Assembly (NCBI GenBank): GCA_963708135.1 | Contig: OY970192.1 | Span: 3,200,001 to 3,264,000 of the forward strand | Length of the DNA stretch: 64,000 nucleotides | Direction: 5' to 3' | Source: an uncultured Gemmatimonadales bacterium | GTDB lineage: Bacteria; Gemmatimonadota; Gemmatimonadetes; Longimicrobiales; RSA9 | Shown: piece by piece, positions 26,488-59,966 of the stretch | Layout of the letters: each line of letters opens with the position of its first letter | Numbering within the stretch: the stretch's first letter is position 1 | Made by a program: the position numbers and the translations under genes | Notes under the pieces: generated by a model | Databases searched by the model: none | The model's input: the letters and a program-made list of their open reading frames with translations, nothing else | What the model was told of the DNA's origin: nothing

Positions 26488-27690
26488 CTACTTCACCGCG
26501 TTCACCATGTCGAAGATCGGCAGGTACATGGCGACGATCATCCCGCCGACGACGACGCCGAGCACGACGATCATGACGGGCTCCATGGCGGCGAGCAGGG
26601 CTTCGACGGCGGCGTCAACTTCCTCGTCGTAGAAGTCGGCGATCTTGTTGAGCATCTCGTCGAGGCCGCCGGTCTGCTCGCCGACGTTGATCATCTGCAC
26701 GACCATGGGGGGGAAGACGTTGCTCTTCTTGAGCGGCTCGGAGATGGTCTCGCCGCCGGCGATGGAGGCGCGGCTCTCCATGACGGCGTCGTGGATGACG
26801 CGGTTGCCGGCGGTCTTGGCGGTGATCTCGAGGCCGTCGAGGATGGAGACGCCGGAGGCGACGAGGGTGCCGAGGGTGCGGGTGAAGCGCGCGACGGCGG
26901 ACTTTCGCAGCATGTTGCCGAGCACGGGGATGTGGAGGCTCATCTTGTCGATGGCGAGCTCGCCGTTGTCGGTGCCGTAGTAGGCGCGGATGGCGAAGAT
27001 GGCGCCCGCGATGGCGGCGGCGACGGCCCACCAGTAGGCCTGGAGGAAGGCGGACATGCCAATGACGATGCGGGTGGGCAGCGGCAGGGCGATGCCGGCG
27101 TCGGCGAACATGGTCTGGAAGGTCGGGATCACGAAGATGAGCAGGATCGCGATGGCGCCGGCGGCGACGGACATGACGACGGCGGGGTAGATCATGGCGC
27201 CCTTGATCTTGCGGCGCAGCGCGTCGGCCTTCTCGAGGAAGGTGGCCAGGCGGAGCAGGATGGTGTCGAGGATGCCGCCGGCCTCGCCGGCGGCGACCAT
27301 GTTGGTGTAGAGGGCGGGGAAGACCTTCTCCTGCTTGCGCATGGCGTCGGCCAGGGTCTGGCCGGACTCGACGTCGTAGAGGATCTCCTCGATGACCTTC
27401 TGGAGGTGCTTGTTCTCGCTCTGCTTGGCCAGGATGTCGAGGGACTGCACGAGGGGCAGCCCGGAGTTGATCATCGTGGCGAACTGGCGCGTGAAGATGA
27501 CGAGGTCGCGGGTGGAGACGCCGGTCCCGAAGCTGAGGTTGAGGGCGCCGGCCTTCTTCTCCTCGACCTTGACGGGGATGAGGCGCTGCTTGCGCAGCAG
27601 CTGGACGACATCGTCGCGGCTGGCGAGGTCGATCTCGCCGTTCTGGATCTCGCCCGTGGTGGCGCGTGCGGAGTAGGTGAACGTCGGCAT
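26488..27690 (-). CDS. pilC: Type IV pilus platform protein PilC (T2SS F family)
   Basis: FTRQFATMINSGLPL, AGEAGGILDTILLRLA, VGEQTGGLDEML motifs. Confidence 0.95.
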   Translation of the reverse strand: MPTFTYSARATTGEIQNGEIDLASRDDVVQLLRKQRLIPVKVEEKKAGALNLSFGTGVSTRDLVIFTRQFATMINSGLPLVQSLDILAKQSENKHLQKVIEEILYDVESGQTLADAMRKQEKVFPALYTNMVAAGEAGGILDTILLRLATFLEKADALRRKIKGAMIYPAVVMSVAAGAIAILLIFVIPTFQTMFADAGIALPLPTRIVIGMSAFLQAYWWAVAAAIAGAIFAIRAYYGTDNGELAIDKMSLHIPVLGNMLRKSAVARFTRTLGTLVASGVSILDGLEITAKTAGNRVIHDAVMESRASIAGGETISEPLKKSNVFPPMVVQMINVGEQTGGLDEMLNKIADFYDEEVDAAVEALLAAMEPVMIVVLGVVVGGMIVAMYLPIFDMVNAVK

Positions 27691-27728
27691 CCGATGATCC
27701 TCGTCTCGGGGGTCCGTTGTCGACGCGG

Positions 27729-28840
27729 CTAGGCGGGGAGGGGCTGGCCGGTCATTCGGAGCAGCTCGTTGGGGTCGGAGGAGTGCTGGAGCGCCTCCTC
27801 CAGGGTGATGTCGCCTGCGATGAAGAACTGGTAGAGCGCATCGTTGAGGGTCTGCATGCCGAACTTCTTGCCGGCCTGCATGGTGGAGTAGATCTGGTGC
27901 ACCTTGTCGTCGCGGATGCAGGCGCGCACGGCGGGGGTGCAGATCATGATCTCGCAGGCGCACACGCGGCCGGTGCCGGTGGCGCGCGGGATGAGGGTCT
28001 GGGTGACGACGCCCTCGAGGACGAAGGCGAGCTGGGCGCGCACCTGGGCCTGCTGGTTGGAGGGGAAGACGTCGATGATGCGGTTGATGGTCTCGGCCGC
28101 CGAGTTGGTGTGCAGGGTGGCGAAGGCGAGGTGGCCGGTCTCGGCGATGGTGAGGGCGGCCTGGATGGTCTCGAGGTCGCGCATCTCGCCGATGAGAACG
28201 AAGTCGGGGTCCTGGCGCAGCGCGTACTTGAGGGCGGCGCCGAAGCTCTTGGTGTCGGCGCCGACCTCGCGCTGGTTGACAATGCAGCCCTGGTGCTTGT
28301 GGACGAACTCGATGGGGTCCTCGACGGTGAGGATGTGGCCCTTCTCCTCGCGGTTGATCTTGTCGAGCATGGCGGCGAGGGTGGTCGACTTGCCGGAGCC
28401 GGTGGGTCCGGTGACGAGGACGAGGCCGCGCGGCTTCTCGGCGAGGGCGGCGACGATGGCGGGCAGGCCGAGATCGTCGAAGGTCTTGATGGAGAAGGGG
28501 ATCTGGCGGACGGCCATGGAGACGCAGCCGCGCTGGCGGTAGACGTTGCCGCGGAAGCGGGCCAGGTTGGTGATGCCGAAGGAGAAGTCGAGCTCGTCCT
28601 CGAGCTCGAAGCGCTTCTTCTGCGCGTCGGTGAGGATCGAGTAGGCGATCTGGAGCGTGTCCTTGGCCGAGAGCACGTAGTCGGCGGAGGCGTTGGTGAG
28701 ATGGCCGTCGATGCGCAGCTTGGGGTGCTCGCCGGCGGTGATGTGGAGATCGCTGGCGTCGCGACGGATCATCTCCTCGAGCAGGGCGCGCAGGTTGATC
28801 CCCTGGCCCTGCTGCTGCTGGGTCGGCACCTGGGTGGTAC

Positions 28841-28844
<4 letters not shown>
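27729..28844 (-). CDS. pilT: Type IV pilus retraction ATPase PilT
   Basis: ASDLHI, GPTGSGKSTT, TVEDPIE, LRQDPD, AETGHL, GMQT motifs. Confidence 0.95.
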
Positions 28845-30562
<1,718 letters not shown>

Positions 30563-30609
30563 GTCTGTTGCTTGAACTGCCTTCGGTGGAGGCATTTCGG
30601 GGAGGTCTC

Positions 30610-30639
30610 AGTATACCAAGAGGGGCGGGCATAGGTCAA
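30610..30639 (-). promoter_or_regulatory. sigma70 promoter for pilB-pilT-pilC
   Basis: TTGACC(30639-30634)-18bp-TATACT(30615-30610) with an extended -10 TG. Confidence 0.7.
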
Positions 30640-30674
30640 GGTGTTGCGTCGTATGCGCGTGTGCGCGCGCGGCA

Positions 30675-31037
30675 AGAGTGGGCGAGTGGGAGAGTGGGAG
30701 ACCGGGGCGACGCTCGCGGCGGCCGACCGCGACCGGGCCTCGCACCGTGCCGGGTGCCGCACGTGCAGGGCCCTTCCTCCGGACCGGGCGACGCCACTCT
30801 CCCACGCCCTCCCCCAGAGTGGGAGAGTGGGAGAGTGGGAGACCGGGGCGACGCTCGCGGCGGCCGACCGCGACCGGGCCTCGCACCGTGCCGGGTGCCG
30901 CACGTGCAGGGCCCTTCCTCCGGACCGGGCGACGCCACTCTCCCACTCCGAACGGCCGCCGCAGGCAATGAGGGCCGCGGAAACGCCGGCACCCTGCCCT
31001 GCCCGGCACAGCACCCACTCTCCCACTCTCCCACTCT
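30675..31037. repeat. Two octamer-bracketed cassettes (141-bp offset), same family as the 32-35 kb array
   Basis: GAGTGGGA runs on the left, TCCCACTC runs on the right, internal modules homologous to the 225-bp unit. Confidence 0.9.
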
Positions 31038-31045
31038 TGCTTCCA

Positions 31046-31906
31046 TCATCGGTCCAGGCTCAGGAATGGCTTCAGCTTGGCCAGCTTCGCGGGGCCAATG
31101 CCGTTGACCTTGAGGAGGTCCTCGGCGGTGCGGAAGGGGCCGGACTTCTCGCGCAGGGCCACGATGCGGGCGGCGAGGGCGGAGCCGATGCCGGGGAGCT
31201 TCTGGAGGTCGGCGGCGGAGGCGGTGTTCGGGTCCACCAGCGCGGCTGGAGCCGCGGGATCCCTGCCCTGCCCTCCCGCCCGACGCGCGGACGCGGGGCG
31301 ACTTCGGGCGACGCGACCGCGCGAGGCCGGGCTCGCGGCGGAGCCGGGCTCCGATTGCGGCGACGCTGCGGCGTCCCGGGACCGGCCCGGTTCCACGATT
31401 TCCGTCACCTCCGCCCTCGCGGCCCGACCGTTCGCCACCCGGCCGCTCGATGCACCGTCGTCGCCCGACCGCGCCGCGAGCTCCGCGTGCGTCCGGATGG
31501 GCAGGCCGTGCGAGGCGCCGAAGGTCAGGTGGGGCAGGAGGCGGGCGATGCGGCCGGCGCTCATGCCGGGGACGGTGCCGAGGTCGTCGCTGCCGGCGAA
31601 AGGGCCGTCTTTCTCGCGGGCGGCGATGACGGCGTGGGCGAGGGTCGGCCCGATGCCGGGGAGGCGATCGAGCTGCTCGGGCGGGGCGGCGTTGACGTTG
31701 ATCTTCTCCGTGCTGCCGAGCGGGCGAGCCGCGCGCCGGTCCTTCTCGGCCGCGGCCTGGCTCTGGCGCTCGATTCTGGCGAGGTCAACGGTGGGCAGGT
31801 CCGGCACGGGCACGGGTGGCCGCAGCACGAGCCGCCCCGCGCCGGCGAGGACGAGCAGGAGCAGCACGAAGCCGACCGCGCGGGATTCGTCCCTGGAGAG
31901 GCTCAT
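31046..31906 (-). CDS. comEA: ComEA-family DNA-binding protein with two helix-hairpin-helix domains
   Basis: N-terminal TM helix; INVNAA...LDRLPGIGP and [15 protein letters not shown]...[16 protein letters not shown]; 3' end of ORF 31046..34945. Confidence 0.88.
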
Positions 31907-31932
31907 CGCCGGTTCAGGGGAGGGTGGGGGAA

Positions 31933-34900
31933 TGGGAGAGTGGGAGACCGGGCGACGTTCGCGGCGGCCGACCGCGACCGGGCCTCGCACCGTGCCGGGT
32001 ACCGCACGTGCACCGGCCTTTCTCCGACCGGGCGCACGCCTCCCCCTTTTCCCACCAGAGTGGGAGAGTGGGAGAGTGGGAGACCGGGGCGACGTTCGCG
32101 GCGGCCGACCGCGGCCGGGCCTCGCACCGTGCCGGGTACCGCACGTGCAGGGCCCTTCCTCCGGACCGGGCGACACCTCCGACTCCGAACGGCCTTCGCA
32201 GGCAACGAGGCCTGCGGAAACGCCGGCATCCTGGCCTGCCCGGCGCTGCACCCACTCTCCCACTCGCCCACTCCCTCCCCCAGAGTGGGAGAGTGGGAGA
32301 GTGGGAGACCGGGGCGACGTTCGCGGCGGCCGACCGCGGCCGGGCCTCGCACCGTGCCGGGTACCGCACGTGCAGGGCCCTTCCTCCGGACCGGGCGACA
32401 CCTCCGACTCCGAGCTGCCTTCGCGGGCAACGAGGGCCGCGGAAACGCCGGCATCCCGGCCTGCCCGGCGCTGCACCCACTCTCCCACTCGCCCACTCCC
32501 TTCCCCAGAGTGGGAGAGTGGGAGAGTGGGAGACCGGGGCGACGTTCGCGGCGGCCGACCGCGACCGGGCCTCGCACCGTGCCGGGTACCGCACGTGCAG
32601 GGCCCTTCCTCCGGACCGGGCGACACCTCCGACTCCGAACGGCCTCCGCAGACAACGAGGGCCGCGGAAACGCCGGCATCCCGCCCTGCCCGGCGCTGCA
32701 CCCACTCTCCCACTCGCCCACTCCCTTCCCCAGAGTGGGAGAGTGGGGGAGTGGGAGACCGGGGCGACGTTCGCGGCGGCCGACCGCGACCGGGCCTCGC
32801 ACCGTGCCGGGTACCGCACGTGCAGGGCCCTTCCTCCGGACCGGGCGACACCTCCGACTCCGAGCTGCCTTCGCGGGCAACGAGGGCCGCGGAAACGCCG
32901 GCATCCTGCCCTGCCCGGCGCTGCACCCACTCTCGCACTCGCCCACTCCCTCCCCCAGAGTGGGAGAGTGGGGGAGTGGGAGACCGGGGCGACGTTCGCG
33001 GCGGCCGACCGCGACCGGGCCTCGCACCGTGCCGGGTACCGCACGTGCAGGGCCCTTCCTCCGGACCGGGCGACACCTCCGACTCCGAGCTGCCTTCGCG
33101 GGCAACGAGGGCCGCGGAAACGCCGGCATCCTGCCCTGCCCGGCGCTGCACCCACTCTCCCACTCGCCCACTCCCTCCCCCAGAGTGGGAGAGTGGGAGA
33201 GTGGGAGACCGGGGCGACGTTCGCGGCGGCCGACCGCGACCGGGCCTCGCACCGTGCCGGGTACCGCACGTGCAGGGCCCTTCCTCCGGACCGGGCGACA
33301 CCTCCGACTCCGAACGGCCTCCGCAGACAACGAGGGCCGCGGAAACGCCGGCATCCTGCCCTGCCCGGCGCTGCACCCACTCTCGCACTCGCCCACTCCC
33401 TCCCCCAGAGTGGGAGAGTGGGGGAGTGGGAGACCGGGGCGACGTTCGCGGCGGCCGACCGCGACCGGGCCTCGCACCGTGCCGGGTACCGCACGTGCAC
33501 CGGCGTTTCTCCGACCGGGCGCGCGCCTCCGGTTCCGAGCTGCCTTCGCGGGCAACGAGGGCCGCGGAAACGCCGGCATCCTGCCCTGCCCGGCGCTGCA
33601 CCCACTCTCGCACTCGCCCACTCCCTCCCCCAGAGTGGGAGAGTGGGGGAGTGGGAGACCGGGGCGACGTTCGCGGCGGCCGACCGCGACCGGGCCTCGC
33701 ACCGTGCCGGGTACCGCACGTGCAGGGCCCTTCCTCCGGACCGGGCGACACCTCCGACTCCGAGCTGCCTTCGCGGGCAACGAGGGCCGCGGAAACGCCG
33801 GCATCCTGCCCTGCCCGGCGCTGCACCCACTCTCCCACTCGCCCACTCCCTTCCCCAGAGTGGGAGAGTGGGGGAGTGGGAGACCGGGGCGACGTTCGCG
33901 GCGGCCGACCGCGACCGGGCCTCGCACCGTGCCGGGTACCGCACGTGCAGGGCCCTTCCTCCGGACCGGGCGACACCTCCGACTCCGAACGGCCTCCGCA
34001 GACAACGAGGGCCGCGGAAACGCCGGCATCCTGCCCTGCCCGGCGCTGCACCCACTCTCCCACTCGCCCACTCCCTCCCCCAGAGTGGGAGAGTGGGGGA
34101 GTGGGAGACCGGGGCGACGTTCGCGGCGGCTGACCGCGACCGGGCCTCGCACCGTGCCGGGTACCGCACGTGCAGGGCCCTTCCTCCGGACCGGGCGACA
34201 CCTCCGACTCCGAACGGCCTCCGCAGACAACGAGGGCCGCGGAAACGCCGGCATCCTGCCCTGCCCGGCGCAGCACCCACTCTCCCACTCGCCCACTCCC
34301 TCCCCCAGAGTGGGAGAGTGGGGGAGTGGGAGACCGGGGCGACGTTCGCGGCGGCCGACCGCGACCGGGCCTCGCACCGTGCCGGGTACCGCACGTGCAG
34401 GGCCCTTCCTCCGGACCGGGCGACACCTCCGACTCCGAACGGCCTCCGCAGACAACGAGGGCCGCGGAAACGCCGGCATCCCGCCCTGCCCGGCGCTGCA
34501 CCCACTCTCCCACTCGCCCACTCTCCCACTCTGGCGGGGGGGAGTGGGAGGGCGGGAGGGGCGCCCGCCTCCGACTCCGAACTGCCTTCGCAGGCAACGA
34601 GGCCCGCGGAAACGCCGGCATCCCGCCCTGCCCGGCGCTGCACCCACTCTCCCACTCGCCCACTCTCCCACTCTGGCGGGGGGAGTGGGAGGGCGGGAGG
34701 GGCGCCCGCCTCCGGTTCCGAGCTGCCTTCGCGGGCAACGAGGCCCGCGGAAACGCCGGCATCCCGCCCTGCCCGGCGCTGCACCCACTCTCCCACTCGC
34801 CCACTCTCCCACTCTGGCGGGGGGAGTGGGAGGGCGGGAGGGGCGCCCGCCTCCGACTCCGAACTGCCTTCGCGGGCAACGAGGGCCGCGGAAACGCCGG

Positions 34901-34980
34901 CATCCTGCCCTGCCCGGCGCAGCACCCACTCTCCCACTCGCCCACTCTCCCACTCTGGCGGGGGGAGTGGGAGGGCGGGA
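31933..34980. repeat. Tandem array: one ~123-bp partial unit, 11 x 225-bp units, 3 x 141/142-bp units
   Basis: 225-bp units start at 32056, 32281, 32506, 32731, 32956, 33181, 33406, 33631, 33856, 34081 and 34306; short units start at 34529, 34671 and 34812. Confidence 0.95.
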
Positions 34981-35003
34981 TCGCGAAGATTCAGGCCGCG
35001 CGT

Positions 35004-35399
35004 TCACCGGATCTTCCATTGGCCTGGGCGGGCGGACATCACGGCGAGGCCGGCGATGATGCCGTCGTAGCGGGCGTCGTGGGCCTTCGCGGCTTCGGCA
35101 TCCATCCAGCCGGAGAGCTCCGCGAATTCGATCCAGACCCGCGTCTCCCCGGCCTCGCCCGCCGCTTCGGTCAGCTTGGCGACGAAGGCGGCGGGGTAGC
35201 GTCGCTTCTGCCAGGCCTCGGCAATGTTGGCGCAGACGGAGCGGGACGAGCGACGCATCTGGGATGTCAGCGCGTAACGCTCATCCCGCGGGAAGTGCTG
35301 GCTGGCCTCGAAGAGAGCCATGGCCGCATCGCGCGACTCACGGTAGACGCGGAGCTGCCGGTGGTCGAGGATCCGGCCCTGCCATCTGTCCTGAGGCAT
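35004..35399 (-). CDS. Four-helix-bundle protein (23S rRNA IVP / Avd-like, TIGR02436-type)
   Basis: L.VY......A...F..S..FPRDERYALTSQMRRSSRSVCANIAEAW..RRY...F..KL....GEA.ET..W; GGAGTGA RBS. Confidence 0.92.
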   Translation of the reverse strand: MPQDRWQGRILDHRQLRVYRESRDAAMALFEASQHFPRDERYALTSQMRRSSRSVCANIAEAWQKRRYPAAFVAKLTEAAGEAGETRVWIEFAELSGWMDAEAAKAHDARYDGIIAGLAVMSARPGQWKIR

Positions 35400-35434
35400 T
35401 GGCGTTCACTCCGGGCGTTGTCGTGCGCGGACGC

Positions 35435-35794
35435 AGAGAGTGGGAGAGTGGGAGACCGGGCGACGTTCGCCGGGGCCGAACGTGCCCGGGCCTCGCAGCG
35501 CTCGCAGCCGGGCGGCTTCGCCGGGGCGCCGAACGTTTCCGGCGGCTCCCCCTCCCTCGGACCCGCGTCGGCCCGATTCAACCCGCCTGCCAGCGCTCCC
35601 GGCGACCACAAGCCTGCACCGCGCCGGCAACCCGGCGCAGCCGTGGCAGCCTGCACCGCACCGCAGCCCGGCGCAGCCGTGAGCGCCCGCACCGCGCCGG
35701 CAACCCGGCGCAGCCGAGCGGAGCCTCCGCAGCCCGCGCCCCCGCCCCGCCCGGCAGCTCTCCCACTCTCCCACTCTCCCACTCTCCCACTCTC
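35435..35794. repeat. Diverged octamer-bracketed cassette upstream of the four-helix-bundle gene
   Basis: GAGAGTGGGAGAGTGGGAGACCGGGCGACGTTCGC start, (TCCCACTC)x4 end, internal GCACCGCGCCGGCAACCCGGCGCAGCCG repeats. Confidence 0.85.
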
Positions 35795-35922
35795 GCCGGC
35801 GCGGACGAACAAGCGGCCCGACCCACCCCCCACCAGCAAACCCCGGCCCACCCGGGGCACGGCCACCCGCCTGGCCGGAGCTCCTGCCGGCCGTCATCCC
35901 GCCGGAAAGACCCGGCCGGCCG

Positions 35923-36927
35923 TCATCCTCCTGCAAAGATCAGCGCGCCCAGCACCTTCCCGACGACCTCCAGCCCGACGGGCGAGGTATGCGCGACGGT
36001 GTCCTCGAGCGTGTGCCAGTATGCGTTTCCGGGGCCGTAGTCGAAGTCGATGATGTCGATGGTGTGGATGCCGGCCTTGTTGAGGGGGATGTGGTCGTCA
36101 TCGATCGCCATGCCCTCGGTGCGGGGGAAGTACTGGCCGAAGCCGAGCTGCTCGGCGGTGCGCCAGACGCGGTCGACGACCTCGGGGGCCTGCTGCTCCG
36201 AGGTGGGCTCGATCGGATAGACGGGGCTCTGGTCGCCCACCATGTCCACGAGAATGCCGTAGAGGGGCTTGTAGCCGGGCGGCATGTTGGCGGCGAAGTG
36301 TGTCGAGCCGAGGTACATGTCGCCGGTGTAGTCCTCGCCGTCCACGAAGAGTAGGTCCACGCCGATCGGCGGGGAATGGCGTTTCAGGACATCGGCAAGC
36401 TCCATCAGGACGGCGACGCCGCTGCCGCCGTCGTTGGCGCCCTGGATCGGCTTGATCTTCGCGCTGTCGGTCTCGTTGTCGGCGGTGGGGCGGGTGTCCC
36501 AGTGGGCGAGCAGCAGGACGCGGTCGTGGGCGGAAGGGTTGAAGCGGGCGAAGACGTTGGAGAGGTGGAGCGTCTTGCCGGCGGCCTGCGCGTCGAAGCT
36601 GTGCACCTGCACGGTGTCGGCGCGCGTCTTCAGGTAGTCGACCATCCACTGGAGCTGCTTTTCGTGGCCGGGGGTGCCCGGCACGCGCGGGCCGAAGGCG
36701 ACCTGCTGCCGGATCAGGTCCTCGGCGGCCGCGCCGCTGAAGTCGGGCGCCACGAGCGGCTTCCCCGCCGCCGTCTCCGCGCCCTGGGCGTTGCCCGACC
36801 CGCCGGACCCGGCGGACCCGCCGGAGCGCTCGCACGCGGGCAGCGCCATCCCGACCAACAGCAGCATGCAGGCGACGAGCCCGCCGCGGATCCAGCGCGG
36901 CAGTCGGCGTTCGCGGACGGCTCCCAC
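35923..36927 (-). CDS. M28-family peptidase / glutaminyl cyclase-like lipoprotein
   Basis: FGPRVPGT, AHWDTRP, GANDGGSG, DGED, DDH and WHT motifs; lipobox LPAC. Start uncertain (36867, 36927 or 36996). Confidence 0.85.
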   Translation of the reverse strand: MGAVRERRLPRWIRGGLVACMLLLVGMALPACERSGGSAGSGGSGNAQGAETAAGKPLVAPDFSGAAAEDLIRQQVAFGPRVPGTPGHEKQLQWMVDYLKTRADTVQVHSFDAQAAGKTLHLSNVFARFNPSAHDRVLLLAHWDTRPTADNETDSAKIKPIQGANDGGSGVAVLMELADVLKRHSPPIGVDLLFVDGEDYTGDMYLGSTHFAANMPPGYKPLYGILVDMVGDQSPVYPIEPTSEQQAPEVVDRVWRTAEQLGFGQYFPRTEGMAIDDDHIPLNKAGIHTIDIIDFDYGPGNAYWHTLEDTVAHTSPVGLEVVGKVLGALIFAGG

Positions 36928-36992
36928 CCGCGCCCGCGGTCGCAGTCGCAGCTCGAGCGGGCCGGCGATGGGCGGCGCGCCGCGTCGCCTGC

Positions 36993-39900
36993 TCAATGGG
37001 GCAGGTCCGAGGGGAGCTGGCCGGCGGAGAGGTCGAACTGGCCGAAGATGCCGAGCTGGAACTGGCTGGTCCCGTTCAGGGTGCCGATGTGGCTCTGGCG
37101 GGAGTTGTAGCTCATCTGGACGCCGACGTTCAGGTCGGAGAGCATGGTGTCGAAGGTCAGGTCGATGCGGCGGTTCATGTAATCCACGTAAGGGACGCAT
37201 CCGGAGCTCTCCGTGGTGGTCTGGACGAAGCGGCACGAGCGCTCCCCCTGCTGGGAGAGGGAGAGCGAGACGTGCAGCGGGCTCTTGAGCTTGTCGCGGA
37301 ACATCGGGGGTGCCCTGAACGCGCCGGAGAGCTGGACGGTGTGGTTCGTCTGGTCCTCCTGCGCGTTGCCGGTCGGGTCCGCGGTGCTGCCGTGCGTGAT
37401 GGAGCCGGTGTAGGTGGCGGTGCCAATGGTGCCGACGCCGAGGCTGAGCTGGAGCGGGTAGCGGCTCTGCACGGTGCTGCGGACCTGGGCGCGGGTCGCG
37501 CCGGCCCCGCCGCCGCCGGGGCCGCCGGCGCCGCCCTCGAGGACGAGGCCGGCGCCGCCCAGCACGTTGCGCTGGTCGGTGTGCTGGTACCCGGTGGTCA
37601 TGGAGAGGTGGCGGAAGACGGGCCGGGCGAAGCCGGGGATCGGGATGCTGCCCCACTGCAGCTGGATGTCGGGCCAGGTGGCCTGGTGCTGCGTGCGCTG
37701 CCCGCCGCGGGTGTCGAGGTAGCTGTTGTCGGACCCGTCGTAGGAGAGGGCGAGCTGGGTCTGGAAGGGCAGGGCGAGGCCGGTGCGGGCGCGGAAGGCG
37801 CTGCGCTGGTTGGTGGAGACGGCGGTGTCCTGGCCGATGACGCGGAAGCCGCCCAGCCCGCCGAGGCCGAGCTGGTAGCCGGTGCCGGGGTCGCCGTCGG
37901 CGCGCTCGAACTGGGAGCCGAGGCCGTCGATCCAGGTGAGGTCGATCGGGCGGACGGCGGAGCCGATGCTCCGCAGCACGCGCGAGGCGCGGCCGGCGGT
38001 CGAGTCGCGGCGGGCGCCGAACAGGGTGCTCATGAGGCCGCCCGGGTCGATCTGAAGCGTGCGGTTGAGCGTGCGGTCCGCCTGGAACTGCCGCTGCAGC
38101 GCGGCGCTGCTGTCGGCGCCGTCGGCGATGATCCGCAGGTAGGACGGGTTGCGGGCCGTGCCGAAGTGGGCCGAGTAGGAGAGGCCGGGCTGGAGCCAGG
38201 AGGCGACGCGGGGGCGGAACGCGAAGCTCGTGGTCATGTTGCGCGCGGTCTCCCACCCGATGTCGAGGCCGCCGACGCTGCCGCGGGCATCCCGGATGGC
38301 CTGGCGCTGGAGCGGCGCGGTGGTGGCGCGGTCGGCGGGCAGCAGGTCGCGTGTGCTGTTGACGGAGACGGACGCGCTCATGGTCTCGAAGGGGCGCAGC
38401 GAGAGGCGGGCGGTGTTCTGGAGCCCCATGCGCGGCGACTCGACGGGCGCCACGAGCGTGTCGGAGGGCAGCGCGAGGATCGTGCTATAGCGGTACGCGC
38501 GGCTCTGCTGGTTCGAGTAGCTGGTGGAGAAGGAGATCGCGTCGGGGCTCCAGCGCAGCTTCGCCCCGGTGAGCTCCTTGAAGAGCTGGCTCTTCTCGAG
38601 GAAGGCGGGAAAGAGCGCGTGGACGAGGCCGTCCACGAAGCCGGGGGTGATGTCGAGCTCGTGGGCGTCGATCTTCCGGTCGTAGGTGAGCGCGGCGTCG
38701 AGCCCGCCGGCCTGGGAGAGGGAGGTGATGTTGCCGTTGCTCGCGGCGCTGTAGCCGAGGCGCAGCGCGGTGCCGTCGAGGAGCAGCCCGAGCCACGGGT
38801 TGGACGCGGGCGTGGTGCGGCGGAGCGCCAGGTCCACGCGGGTCCGCGAGGCGCCGGTGAAGCGCAGGTTCGAGAGCTGGTTGGCCAGCACGTCGCTCTG
38901 CTGGAGGAACATCGGGTCGAGCCCGGTGTGGGCGTAGCTCACCGTGAGCGGCGCCTCGATGCCCCAGCCGGTGGGGGCGAGGTGGCCGAGCTCGGCGCGG
39001 GCGTTGAGCCCCATGTCGGCGGACCGCTGGTAGGACGCTCCCTGCCCGAGCTGGTGGAAGAGCGCGCCCTGGTGCGAGTAGGAGGCGGTGGCCGCGATGA
39101 AGTCGCCGCCGCGCACATCGAGGTTCACGGCGCCGGCGAAGCCGGGGTCGGTGAGCGCGGAGCCGAGGCGGACGTCGTCGATCCAGACCTCGGCGGGCTC
39201 GGGCGCGATGCCGCCGTTGTAGATGGAGAAGGAGAGCTCGCGCACGGCGGCCAGGTTCGGAGCGCGGGCGCGGTCCTGGAGCACGACGCCGTAGGTGCTG
39301 TCGGCGCTCCAGAGCACGAGCGGGGCGGTCCGGTCGGGCTGCTGGATGAGGGCCTCCTCGGCGGCGGCGCGGAGCTCGAACCAGGGCTCGAAGTCGATGG
39401 CGATCTCGGGCAGCCAGTCGGACGCCTTCGCGCCCGCGCCCGGGACGGGCGCGGCGAGGCGGGTGCGGTAGAGGTAGTAGTTGGCGTCGTCGTTGCCGAC
39501 CTTGATGAGGAGCTGCTCGTCGCCGCTCGGTCCCCAGTTGCCCTGCCGCGCCACCGCCCACACGCGCATCTGGCGGTAGCTCAGGAAGTTGCGTGGCTGC
39601 TGCGGGTAGCGGTAGTAGACCTCCGCGCGACTGTCCGGCTGGAGCGCCGTGACGCTCAGCCGGAGCGCCTTCTCGTTGATCTCGACGCTGCTCACGCCGA
39701 GCGCGCTGGTCGGGTCCTGGAGCTGGTCGGTGACGCCGGGCGGGCTCGCGTAGCCGCTGTCGTTCACGCGGCTCACGGGGCCGACGCGGAAGCCGGCCGC
39801 GTCGCCAGGCGCGCCGGGGTCCGTGCGGTCGAGGCCGTCCACGATGCCGCTCACCCCGCGCTTGGCCCAGCGGGAGCCGATGATGTTCATGCGCGCAAGC

Positions 39901-53561: not shown

Positions 53562-54090
53562 GCCGGCACCGCGGAGGCGGGCGGGCGCCCCCTCGGGGCC
53601 AGCACCGTCCTCGCGGCTCCGCCGCTGCGGTCGGCGAATGTCCCCTCCGGGGCGCCCGCCCGCCTCCGCTCCAGCCACCACGCGCGTCGGATCCCTCGCC
53701 AGGCCGGCGCCGCGGCGCGTGTTGAGGGGGACGGTACTGGCAAGCAGGTGGATCTTGCCTCGGGGGTCCCGGCCGGACTCGGCGGGGGCGCGTGTGGGGC
53801 ACCGACGCGAGAGGGCGCGGCCAAGGGCGGGTCGCTCGTCGGCGGCGGTGGGAGGCGCCGGACACACCGGCGTATGGGCGCCGCGGAAATCCACCGGCGC
53901 GTACGGAGGCCGGGATCGGCTCCCACTCCCCCACTCTCCCACTTGCCCACTCTCGCGCTTCGGCGCGCGCCGCGGCCGCCGCCACGCGCCGCGGGCGATG
54001 CTTCGCCCGGTGAGGCCGGCGGAAATCCGCGCGCGCTTGCGGTCGCCGGAAGCGGCTCCCACTCCCCCACTCTCCCACTCCCCCACTCTC
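53562..54090. repeat. Structured dispersed element ending in CCCACTC(C/T) octamer runs, copy 1
   Basis: Perfect 21-bp stem 53571-53591/53649-53669; colinear homology with 59260-59735; octamer runs at 53921-53953 and 54057-54090. Confidence 0.8.
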
Positions 54091-59259: not shown

Positions 59260-59966
59260 GCTTGCCGGCGCGGCGTCGGTGGGCGGGCGCACCGGCGCGG
59301 CAGGAAATGCCCTCGCGGCTACGCCGCTCGGGACATTTGACAGCCGCGCCGGTGCGCCCACCCACCTCCGCTGCGGGTTCCCGGAAAGGCGGACGCATCG
59401 CGGGGGCGGCGCCGCAGCCGGAGTGTTTGGGGACATCTTCGGTCGGCGCGTGGATCTTTCCTCGGGCTTCCCGGCCCGACCCGGCGACAGGCGGTGCGGC
59501 GCACCGCGGCGCACGGGCATGGCCGGGCGTGGGACGCTCGTCGGGGGCGACAGGCGGCGCGGCGCGCCGCGGCGCGCGGGCGCGGCTGGACGCGGGACGC
59601 TCGTCCGCAGCCGCAGCCGCAGCGCCGAACCCGGATGCCCGGGCGCACCCACGTGCGCCGCGGAAATCCGCCGGCGAATGCGGGCGCCCGGATCGGCTCC
59701 CACTCCCCCACTCCCCCACTCCCCCACTCTCGCCCGCGCCGGACCCGGATGCCCGGGCGCACCCACGTGCGCCGCGGAAATCCGCCGGCGAATGCGGGCG
59801 CCGGGATCGGCTCCCACTCCCCCACTCCCCCACTCCCCCACTCTCGCCCGCGCCGGACCCGGATGCCCGGGCGCACCCACGAGCGCCGCGGAGATCCGCC
59901 GGCGAATGCGGGCGCCCGGATCGGCTCCCACTCCCCCACTCCCCCACTCCCCCACTCTCGCCCGCG
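59260..59966. repeat. Structured dispersed element copy 2, with 3 x 114-bp tandem units ending in octamer runs
   Basis: CCGGATGCCC recurs at 59631, 59745 and 59859; each unit ends (TCCCCCAC)x3; 24-bp stem 59278-59301/59343-59366. Confidence 0.88.

Follow-up and report, generated by a model that had tools for sequence, protein, structure and literature searches.

Results

Repeat cassettes fill the spacers around a comEA-like gene and a four-helix-bundle gene

The stretch of DNA analysed here, which we call the window, comprises 64,000 nucleotides (positions 3,200,001 to 3,264,000 of contig OY970192.1) of an uncultured Gemmatimonadales bacterium, whose genome (G000) is a single contig of 5,445,952 bp with 72% G+C. 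Between 30.7 and 35.8 kb, in a region whose genes are all on the - strand, the window contains a comEA-like gene, a small gene for a four-helix-bundle protein of the PF05635/TIGR02436 family (the 23S rRNA intervening-sequence protein, IVP or S23p, family), and a block of repeat cassettes in the three spacers around these two genes. The cassettes open with runs of the octamer GAGTGGGA and close with runs of the complementary type, TCCCACTC, hereafter the G-type and C-type words. The octamer is the commonest short tandem word in the genome, and the block represents a local bloom of it.

In the window, 66 copies of GAGTGGGA were counted, where 2.65 would be expected (standard deviation 1.65, maximum 8, in 100 dinucleotide shuffles), and 60 of the 66 fall in 30684-35792. 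Sequence reading distinguishes 18 cassettes, distributed over the three spacers as 2 + 15 + 1 (Table 1), each made of a run of 2-4 G-type words, a non-coding core of 90-310 bp and a run of C-type words. In the spacer between pilB and comEA, the cores hold module A twice, then a diverged module B. The 15 cassettes between comEA and the IVP gene are one short cassette, 11 of 225 bp and 3 of a 141-bp type; in the 225-bp unit, three G-type words precede modules A (99 bp) and B (70 bp), and three C-type words follow them. The core of the single cassette between the IVP and M28 peptidase genes measures 307 bp and includes a 37-bp x 2.9 repeat at 35611-35716. At full length, modules A and B are found at this locus only, genome-wide. 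One 225-nt unit is predicted to fold with its arms paired (-141.5 kcal/mol, z -4.56). The cassettes are therefore real, as an earlier sequence-only reading had described them: about 18, including 11 of 225 bp in tandem, opened and closed by complementary octamer runs that can fold back on each other. By sequence reading, the G-type arms together with the first core bases in 30684-35792 also fit the quadruplex pattern G3-N5-G3-N5-G3-N5-G3, on one strand at the left end of a cassette and on the other strand at its right end.

That reading had also named assembly expansion as a possible source of the array. In such a case the repeat would be real, and the 11 copies (perhaps also the 3.9 of the 141-bp type) would come from expansion or mis-joining by the assembler. 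The window is taken from a single assembly, and the contigs of the sole public run that contains it (26 short pieces) break inside the repeats; none of them spans the array, and several bins are left uncovered. However, the 11 units are 0-27 substitutions apart with only one identical pair, one of them bears a diverged 19-change segment, and two unit variants are interleaved, all of which argues against simple expansion of one unit. Similar word-armed tandem arrays with other cores are present at four other loci of the genome (234 bp x 7, 238 bp x 6, 251 bp x 6 and 281 bp x 1.9), and the k-mer depth of the repeat contig (18.5, against 2.7-8.3 for flanking contigs) points weakly in the same direction. 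We consider an artefact very unlikely; the interleaved variants would rather fit growth by recombination.

Table 1. Genes, cassettes and tandem repeats in the window (TRF, Tandem Repeats Finder)
Feature	Positions	Strand	Basis and remarks
pilC-like gene	26488-27963	-	Profile search
pilT-like gene	27729-29060	-	Profile search
pilB-like secretion ATPase gene	28841-30595	-	T2SSE 484.9 bits, with MshEN
Promoter-like site just upstream of pilB	30610-30639	-	TTGACC-18-TATACT, 10/12 positions matched, TG before second hexamer
Two cassettes, pilB-comEA spacer	30675-31036		G-type runs 30676-30699 and 30817-30840; C-type run 31013-31036
TRF repeat, 141 bp x 1.9	30675-30946		99% matches
comEA-like gene, two helix-hairpin-helix domains	31046-31906	-	HHH_3 137.1 bits; TIGR00426 96.7 bits (cut-off 53.1)
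Short first cassette, abutting comEA start	31924-32049		Module A only, degenerate right arm; TRF period 137
TRF repeat, 137 bp x 1.9	31924-32180		90% matches
Tandem array, 11 x 225 bp	32050-34523		TRF 225 bp x 11.0, 96% matches; 9 nt between units
TRF repeat, 141 bp x 3.9	34426-34980		96% matches
Three 141-bp cassettes	34524-34980		Module B only; left arm GGGGGGAGTGGGAGGGCGGGA-like
Four-helix-bundle gene (IVP/S23p family), intact, 131 aa	35004-35399	-	PF05635, TIGR02436
Single cassette, IVP-M28 spacer	35438-35792		G-type run 35438-35453; C-type run of four words 35761-35792
M28 peptidase gene	35923-37020	-	Peptidase_M28 120.7 bits; conserved upstream neighbour of the four-helix-bundle gene; tblastn synteny in 10 loci of relatives
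SprA_N-containing (SprA-like) protein, 2146 aa	36993-43433	-	Profile search
Further locus with two C-type runs of the GAGTGGGA family word	53921-54088		Word search in window
Further one-armed tandem array, 114 bp x 3.0	59622-59966		Units end in C-type words (TCCCACTC/CCCCACTC); no clear G-type arm

The four-helix-bundle gene shares an arm with the array

The product of the IVP gene matches PF05635 with 88.7 bits (cut-off 33.8, E 3.5e-25) and TIGR02436 with 82.6 bits (cut-off 24, E 2.2e-23), in agreement with the family first proposed for it. It is also related in sequence to solved four-helix bundles in the PDB, namely 2GSC_A (E 3.1e-9 over residues 12-119) and 2RLD_A (E 8.4e-5). The gene is located between the M28 peptidase gene and comEA, and Rfam gave no rRNA match in 30000-36500.

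Complementary runs bracket the gene (35438-35453 / 35761-35792 on one side and 34925-34980 on the other), and a fold of the gene with its flanks is predicted to pair the runs around the open reading frame (ORF; z -4.56). Alignment of the 5' flank with the reverse-complemented 3' flank gives a flank score of 18.5, a value reached by 0.4% of control genes. The proposal that octamer runs enclose the gene was correct. The gene's own 5' G-type arm is missing. On the 3' side, the final truncated copy of the left arm of the 141-bp unit (34965-34980) is at the same time the 3' arm of the gene. As the two are the same sequence, the 141-bp subarray appears to have grown from the gene's arm. We also considered the cassette cores as decayed copies of the IVP gene and rejected this candidate, the best E being 0.076 and three translations of the 35454-35762 core looking unrelated.

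The cassettes belong to a family dispersed in intergenic DNA

The source genome has 166 strict runs (two words, at most 1 mismatch), which group into 80 loci, taken here as about 80 intergenic loci. Looser runs number 257, and their adjacent pairs at least 60 bp apart are overwhelmingly convergent (76 G-then-C versus 2 divergent, C-then-G); the 31 close C-then-G pairs are junctions inside tandem arrays. A degenerate partner accompanies 22 of the 56 runs that look solo, in every case on the convergent side (0 on the other). A crude GC3 gene caller, which covers 68% of the genome, places 23 of the 166 strict runs inside genes. The 31 isolated cassettes measure 168-651 bp and often lie no more than some tens of bases from the end of a called gene. 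Most cores (57 of 76, a count inflated by tandem copies) fall in one cluster; for example, those at positions 259652 and 2934784, 2.7 Mb apart, are 85% identical over 140 nt. Among short-period tandem units, the canonical form of the word, ACTCTCCC, ranks first genome-wide with 105 of 3629 arrays; a further 75 are due to the G variant ACTCCCCC. A cassette family spreading between genes, one of the two possibilities raised initially, is what these distributions describe.

A dispersed, intergenic and hairpin-forming repeat resembles repetitive extragenic palindromic (REP) sequences, their hairpin doublets (REPINs) and miniature inverted-repeat transposable elements (MITEs), and the protein family is related to Avd, the accessory protein of diversity-generating retroelements (DGRs) (PMC10053308). 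The term "23S rRNA IVP" also appears in a figure legend on CRISPR-associated proteins (PMC10910872). The block could in principle be a known mobile system, that is, REP/REPIN elements with their REP-associated tyrosine transposase (RAYT), a MITE of a known insertion sequence (IS), a CRISPR array or a DGR with an Avd-like protein. However, the Y1 transposase profile (PF01797) had 0 matches in the source genome, although the same search matched 6 of 14 known control genomes, and the reverse transcriptase profile RVT_1 had 0 matches as well, which puts the REP/RAYT and DGR routes out. The bAvd profile reached 20.6 bits, below its cut-off of 40. The array units are 96% alike over their full length, so there are no spacers. 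In 30000-36500 searched at E<=1, no Rfam family reached its threshold, the only matches being sub-threshold microRNA-type hairpins at arm junctions (at best 30.6 bits, where the gathering score is 74). Among the run loci we saw no transposase-sized element with GAGTGGGA-type ends, in searches that by family covered only Y1 transposases and reverse transcriptases; the sole gene seen with such ends is the four-helix-bundle gene. The earlier remark that no transposase or reverse transcriptase is adjacent extends, for these two families, to the whole genome, the neighbours being the pilC-, pilT- and pilB-like genes, comEA, the M28 peptidase gene and the SprA-like gene. A known mobile system is thus a highly improbable explanation.

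PF05635 genes are flanked by inverted arrays of their own words

The source genome contains 12 PF05635 matches, which correspond to 10 intact genes and one gene split in two. All 12 adjoin short tandem arrays, and each gene has its own word (e.g., GGTTTT/ACCCAA, GCTTTC/GCGAAT or a 14-mer). A flank score of at least 18.5 was found for 9 of the 10 intact genes versus 0.4% of 800 control genes. Because each PF05635 gene carries its own word, the co-location test between GAGTGGGA runs and TIGR02436 genes that had been suggested at the outset was mis-specified: it gave runs within 500 bp of 1 of the 12 matches in the source genome, 0 of 7 in a relative (G006) and 0 of 2 in another (G002), and the inference of "no link" from these counts was dropped. 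Several arm words of other PF05635 genes occur at gene-less loci too, as raw occurrences without a chance expectation.

Relatives of the window protein in metagenomes have the same organization. Eighty were fetched (44-57% identity), and the 74 with at least 100 nt on both sides were scored. On visual inspection, almost all of those fetched show purine-rich words upstream, with a period that is mostly 8, and the complements of these words downstream; the word itself differs by locus. The median flank score of the 74 was 18.0, against 7.5 for a same-strand control and 9.0 for cross-locus pairs, and 31 of the 74 exceeded the 95th percentile of the cross-locus pairs. G exceeded C upstream in 69/74 loci and C exceeded G downstream in 64/74; 35 of the 74 were strongly polar in this sense and 0 were reversed.

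The motif (GAGYGGGA)3 was also followed across named genomes, where we estimate about 800 stretches in many phyla, including Cyanobacteria (many records), Planctomycetota, Acidobacteriota, Verrucomicrobiota, Bacteroidales and others. A PF05635 ORF was found by profile at 3 of 119 fetched loci, 39 of which had only 300-nt flanks, and a convergent partner run at only 8/68 loci of this wide sampling. At all three ORF-bearing loci, from one Acidobacteriota and two Planctomycetota metagenome-assembled genomes, the run directly abuts an ORF of the window gene's subfamily, with G-type words just 5' of the ATG and C-type words just 3' of the stop. Very long solo runs of this octamer, with 63, 14 and 13 words, were also observed in unrelated phyla (L056, a Streptomyces hawaiiensis record, L047 and L022).

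Taken as a working class, an ORF of PF05635 with a G-rich word array on its 5' side, a complementary array on its 3' side and gene-less copies with the same word describes these loci, the window gene being exceptional in its own 5' arm. The proposal that the repeats and the four-helix-bundle gene belong together is supported at the level of this class. In the literature searched, we found no description of word-arrayed arms around PF05635 genes outside rRNA, or of gene-less derivatives.

Three individual PF05635 loci deserve mention. The halves of the split gene (G000:C1:2369145-2370787) are about 1.3 kb apart, and arms that complement each other (GCAAGA-type and GCGCTTGC-type) are still present at its outer ends, a layout suggestive of an insertion within it. 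A PF05635 gene of G006 (L231, G006:C17:1-1400) has GGGTTA/GGGTTG hexamers upstream and CCCTAA/CCGTAA downstream, the hexamer unit of the vertebrate telomere repeat. In G053, a small gene-less hairpin of the GAGYGGG type is nested in the 3' arm region of a PF05635 gene with other arm words (L243, G053:C144); this nesting hints that cassettes may land in or beside existing arms.

The arm word of a syntenic gene changes between genera

Matches to the window IVP protein at E<=1e-10 were found in 16 of 61 genomes of the family, including one unpublished genome that is counted in the tally and whose locus is left out. Identity was 39-59% in the first 11 relatives listed and 43-59% for those at the same site. 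The order M28-IVP-comEA was found at 9 of the 16 ortholog loci. Sequence comparison thus shows the four-helix-bundle gene as an old resident of the M28-peptidase/comEA junction, in place since before several genera split; what is special to the source genome is the bloom of cassettes around it. In one relative (L213, the ortholog in G006), the stop of the gene is about 50 nt from the comEA start on the same strand, with no array; this is the sole ortholog measured, and the corresponding distance in the window is 3.1 kb of structured DNA. At the other eight syntenic loci, the flanks inspected showed no cassette array. At a tenth locus (L241, G053), another PF05635 subfamily occupies the M28-comEA junction; two subfamilies at one junction suggest that the site attracts insertions or that the gene is functionally tied to comEA. 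The arm word of that G053 gene is the hexamer GGGCTC, versus octamers at the other syntenic loci.

The arms of the syntenic gene consist of GAGTGGGA in G000, GATGGGGA in G006, GGGGGACT in G004 and G018, and a GATGRGGG-like word in G071, with three words in each arm of the relatives' genes. We counted the first three as double words with up to 1 mismatch on both strands. In the order G000, G006, G004, G018 and G071, GAGTGGGA was found 286, 38, 0, 1 and 0 times, GATGGGGA 1, 76, 0, 0 and 0 times (the next highest count among the 61 genomes being 10), and GGGGGACT 4, 0, 16, 11 and 1 times. The word of the syntenic gene is hence the most abundant of the three counted words in 4 of the 5 genomes, each from a different genus. 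Many of the GATGGGGA matches in G006 are convergent pairs about 100 bp apart.

These data bear on a simpler account, in which the cassettes are an ordinary intergenic satellite or REP-like family and the IVP gene merely sits in a colonised spacer. Such a coincidence would be in keeping with GAGTGGGA lying beside only 1 of 12 PF05635 matches, with the missing 5' arm of the window gene, with three genomes (G053, G002 and G006) that carry the word without a gene having these arms, and with the wide sampling of (GAGYGGGA)3, where few of the roughly 800 stretches led to a PF05635 ORF or a convergent partner. It does not fit the inverted word arrays that flank PF05635 genes far above background, both in the source genome and, by score and polarity, in the metagenomic relatives. 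Nor does it fit the three ORF-bearing loci in two other phyla, the agreement between the gene's word and the abundant word in four of five genera, or the 141-bp subarray that begins with the gene's 3' arm. We regard coincidence as unlikely.

The arms appear to be kept as DNA words

The second possibility raised from the sequence was a dedicated RNA-level control of comEA. In an IVS-type device, the arms would pair in the operon transcript and a double-strand RNase would cut the stems, thereby setting comEA/pilB mRNA levels or freeing products of about 225 nt. The predicted folds described above, for a single unit and for the gene plus flanking sequence, are compatible with this. Sequence reading places the end of a degenerate C-type run 12 nt ahead of the comEA ATG, the L213 gene is close to comEA on the same strand, and the synteny is kept in nine loci. 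The ORF-bearing IVS of 23S rRNA is cut by RNase III in its terminal stem (PMC4990558).

However, RNase III (PF00636) was matched in 0 of 41 genomes of the order (36 of high quality; two unpublished ones included), which comprise the source genome and 40 relatives, and PF14622 and an RNase III signature motif gave nothing in the source genome; the control search matched 8 of 14 known genomes, and another nuclease is possible. An order without classical RNase III, if this is so, would be notable in itself. Transition mismatches between arms at 68 metagenomic loci showed no sense-strand excess of G.U-compatible pairs (144 versus 168 of the opposite type, p 0.19), counts that are blurred by register slippage of the tandem words. 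In the 31 isolated cassettes, a left arm fitted its own right arm no better (mean 18.2) than the right arms of other cassettes (20.2), so arms do not co-vary within a cassette. Taken together, the lack of an RNase III match, of a G.U bias and of arm co-variation suggests that the arms serve as words read in DNA rather than as RNA stems maintained by selection. Conservation thus concerns the family word, not how any one hairpin pairs, as expected of protein recognition sites at the ends of DNA elements, or of genome-wide homogenisation.

The location of the cassettes also speaks against the RNA device. The same cassettes are present at some 80 unrelated loci, the array was not seen in the flanks inspected at the relatives' syntenic loci, including the one next to comEA in L213, and pilB has a promoter-like site of its own downstream of the cassettes. 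This site is located between the cassettes and the pilB start and is the sole one of its kind in 30400-36100 (0.0 expected); a scan of the same interval for terminators found 0 sites versus 1.2 expected. The proposed control of comEA was therefore not supported, and we give an IVS-type RNA device a low probability. The block is probably without a dedicated use to comEA or the pilus genes, its main effect being the separation of the IVP gene and comEA by 3.1 kb of structured DNA.

Other repeats in the genome

Two large CRISPR-like arrays are located elsewhere in the source genome, at C1:3644332-3652716 (period 61, 28-nt repeat) and 5132884-5140399 (period ~73, 36-nt repeat). Six tandem arrays of period 61 without spacers, with 86-97% matches over the unit and differing consensus, were found at G000:C1:867371, 3109414, 3189156, 3190762, 5092682 and 5158750.

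Discussion

In this study, we described a kilobase-scale block of repeat cassettes around an old four-helix-bundle gene. We favour, with moderate confidence, the explanation that the block is a local bloom of gene-less, word-armed cassettes amplified at the DNA level, which would belong to the same element class as the neighbouring PF05635/TIGR02436 gene cassette. This class would be a relative of the ORF-bearing IVSs of 23S rRNA, inserted between ordinary genes. The arrays may have grown when directly repeated arms of neighbouring cassettes recombined unequally or slipped during replication, and the 141-bp subarray could have started from the IVP gene's own 3' arm. The A-only, B-only and A+B units would then be mosaics produced by recombination between cassettes, with occasional copying of cassettes to new intergenic sites by a route that the model leaves unspecified. 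The arms may act as family-specific recognition words on DNA, similar to the terminal repeats of transposons and MITEs or to the REP/RAYT system; the four-helix-bundle protein is a candidate for the reader of the word.

Several observations weigh against this explanation. At the locus itself, the window IVP gene lacks its own 5' G-type arm: the nearest G-type run is 362 nt upstream, and the first run met upstream of the ATG, which is part of the cassette at 35438-35792, is of opposite polarity. The adjacency of gene and cassettes could therefore come from cassettes landing beside existing arms. A target-site duplication was not seen by eye at the 31 isolated cassettes, whose arms have blurred limits, and a single assembly underlies the copy number of the 225-bp array. 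Blastx and profile searches over six frames found nothing significant between the cassette cores and the IVP protein (best E 0.076), and core similarity lends no support to a gene-bearing ancestry of the empty cassettes. To our knowledge, catalytic activity has never been reported for the PF05635 family. The slippage that blurs the arm-mismatch counts also softens one of the arguments for DNA words.

Comparison between genomes adds further points of this kind. The link between gene and word is not strict: G053 and G002, which belong to one genus, contain 44 and 9 GAGTGGGA double words, and neither matched the window protein at E<=1e-10 (both are draft assemblies, of 240 and 830 contigs, with a completeness of 91-92%). 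GAGTGGGA-type arms are absent from all 12 PF05635 genes of G053. G006 contains a second family, with its 38 GAGYGGGA double words, and 0 of its 7 PF05635 genes have such arms. The arms of the syntenic gene in G071 fit none of the three counted words. Finally, kin share words by descent, and the pattern of words by genome thus amounts to few independent events.

One could also imagine, as a possibility that we hold only tentatively and think somewhat unlikely as it stands, that a so far undescribed class of mobile DNA, with ends made of arrays of 6-16-nt words, relies on PF05635 proteins as the specificity factors that read these words. If this were true, each gene copy would keep its own word, gene-less cassettes with the same word would be copied or maintained in trans, as in the MITE/IS or REPIN/RAYT pairs, and the classic rRNA IVS would mark a landing site of a special kind. 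A DNA-level system, in an order without an RNase III match, would then have made the word of a comEA-linked gene the commonest short repeat of its genome.

From a broader perspective, PF05635/TIGR02436 is a large family of unknown function and the short tandem words between bacterial genes are unexplained; this locus ties the two together with unusual clarity. One syntenic gene changes its arm word by genus, and the abundant dispersed word changes along with it in four of five genomes. To this co-change, the window adds the kilobase tandem amplification of the gene-less form inside an operon region and three results that point to reading at the DNA level. On the practical side, word-armed arrays break short-read assemblies and may mislead CRISPR-array finders.

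Comparison with known systems

In contrast to a CRISPR array, the whole 225-bp unit is repeated here at 96% identity, without unique spacers, and unlike DGRs, which combine Avd with a reverse transcriptase, the source genome has neither an RVT_1 match nor a bAvd match above the cut-off. The likeness to MITEs is closer, as the cassettes are non-coding, 170-650 bp long, intergenic and bounded by terminal inverted repeats, and share their ends with one gene-bearing element. They differ from MITEs in that a transposase was not found (only Y1 having been searched by family), in the lack of a target duplication by eye, in their mosaic and mostly locus-specific cores, and in owing much of their copy number to local tandem amplification.

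The heptamers of cyanobacteria known as short tandemly repeated repetitive (STRR) sequences are described as solo arrays. Like these, the words studied here are short, G- or C-rich, tandem and intergenic, and (GAGYGGGA)3 itself is present in many cyanobacterial records; here, however, complementary arrays converge in pairs on a core or a gene. In Streptococcus pneumoniae, BOX elements have the modular structure boxA-boxB(n)-boxC, which the arm-A-B-arm make-up of the cassettes, with its A-only, B-only and A+B forms, recalls, as do the stable predicted fold and the intergenic position. The two are unrelated in sequence, and BOX has neither word-array ends nor an associated gene.

The repeats known as bacterial interspersed mosaic elements 2 (BIME-2) are mosaic tandem arrangements of REP sequences in alternating orientation with specific linkers, and in the REPIN-RAYT system a single-copy gene is flanked by its own type of dispersed repeat. 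The cassettes resemble REPs and REPINs as short intergenic hairpin repeats, in hundreds of copies and inverted doublets; they resemble BIME-2 in their mosaic tandem arrangement, and RAYT loci in the position of a gene beside its own dispersed repeat type. Unlike in these systems, no PF01797 transposase was matched in the source genome, the repeat is an array of 8-nt words instead of an imperfect palindrome of 20-40 nt, and the associated gene encodes a 131-aa helical bundle from a family without reported catalytic activity.

The closest comparison is with the IVSs of 23S rRNA, of which Leptospira offers a further ORF-bearing example. The helix-45 IVS of Coxiella burnetii bears an S23p ORF, the S23p protein is a four-helix bundle, the structure 2GSC is a homopentamer, and ORF-bearing IVSs are regarded as selfish, with a function of the ORF that is not established (PMC4990558). 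That IVS has a unique 28-bp stem (PMC4990558), whereas the arms here are arrays of short tandem words. The window element also differs in being located between protein-coding genes and not in an rRNA helix, in belonging to an order in which RNase III, the enzyme of IVS excision, was not found in 41 genomes, and in having gene-less copies that are dispersed and tandemly amplified. What it shares with these IVSs is a PF05635/S23p protein and an ORF enclosed by terminal inverted repeats that are able to form a long stem.

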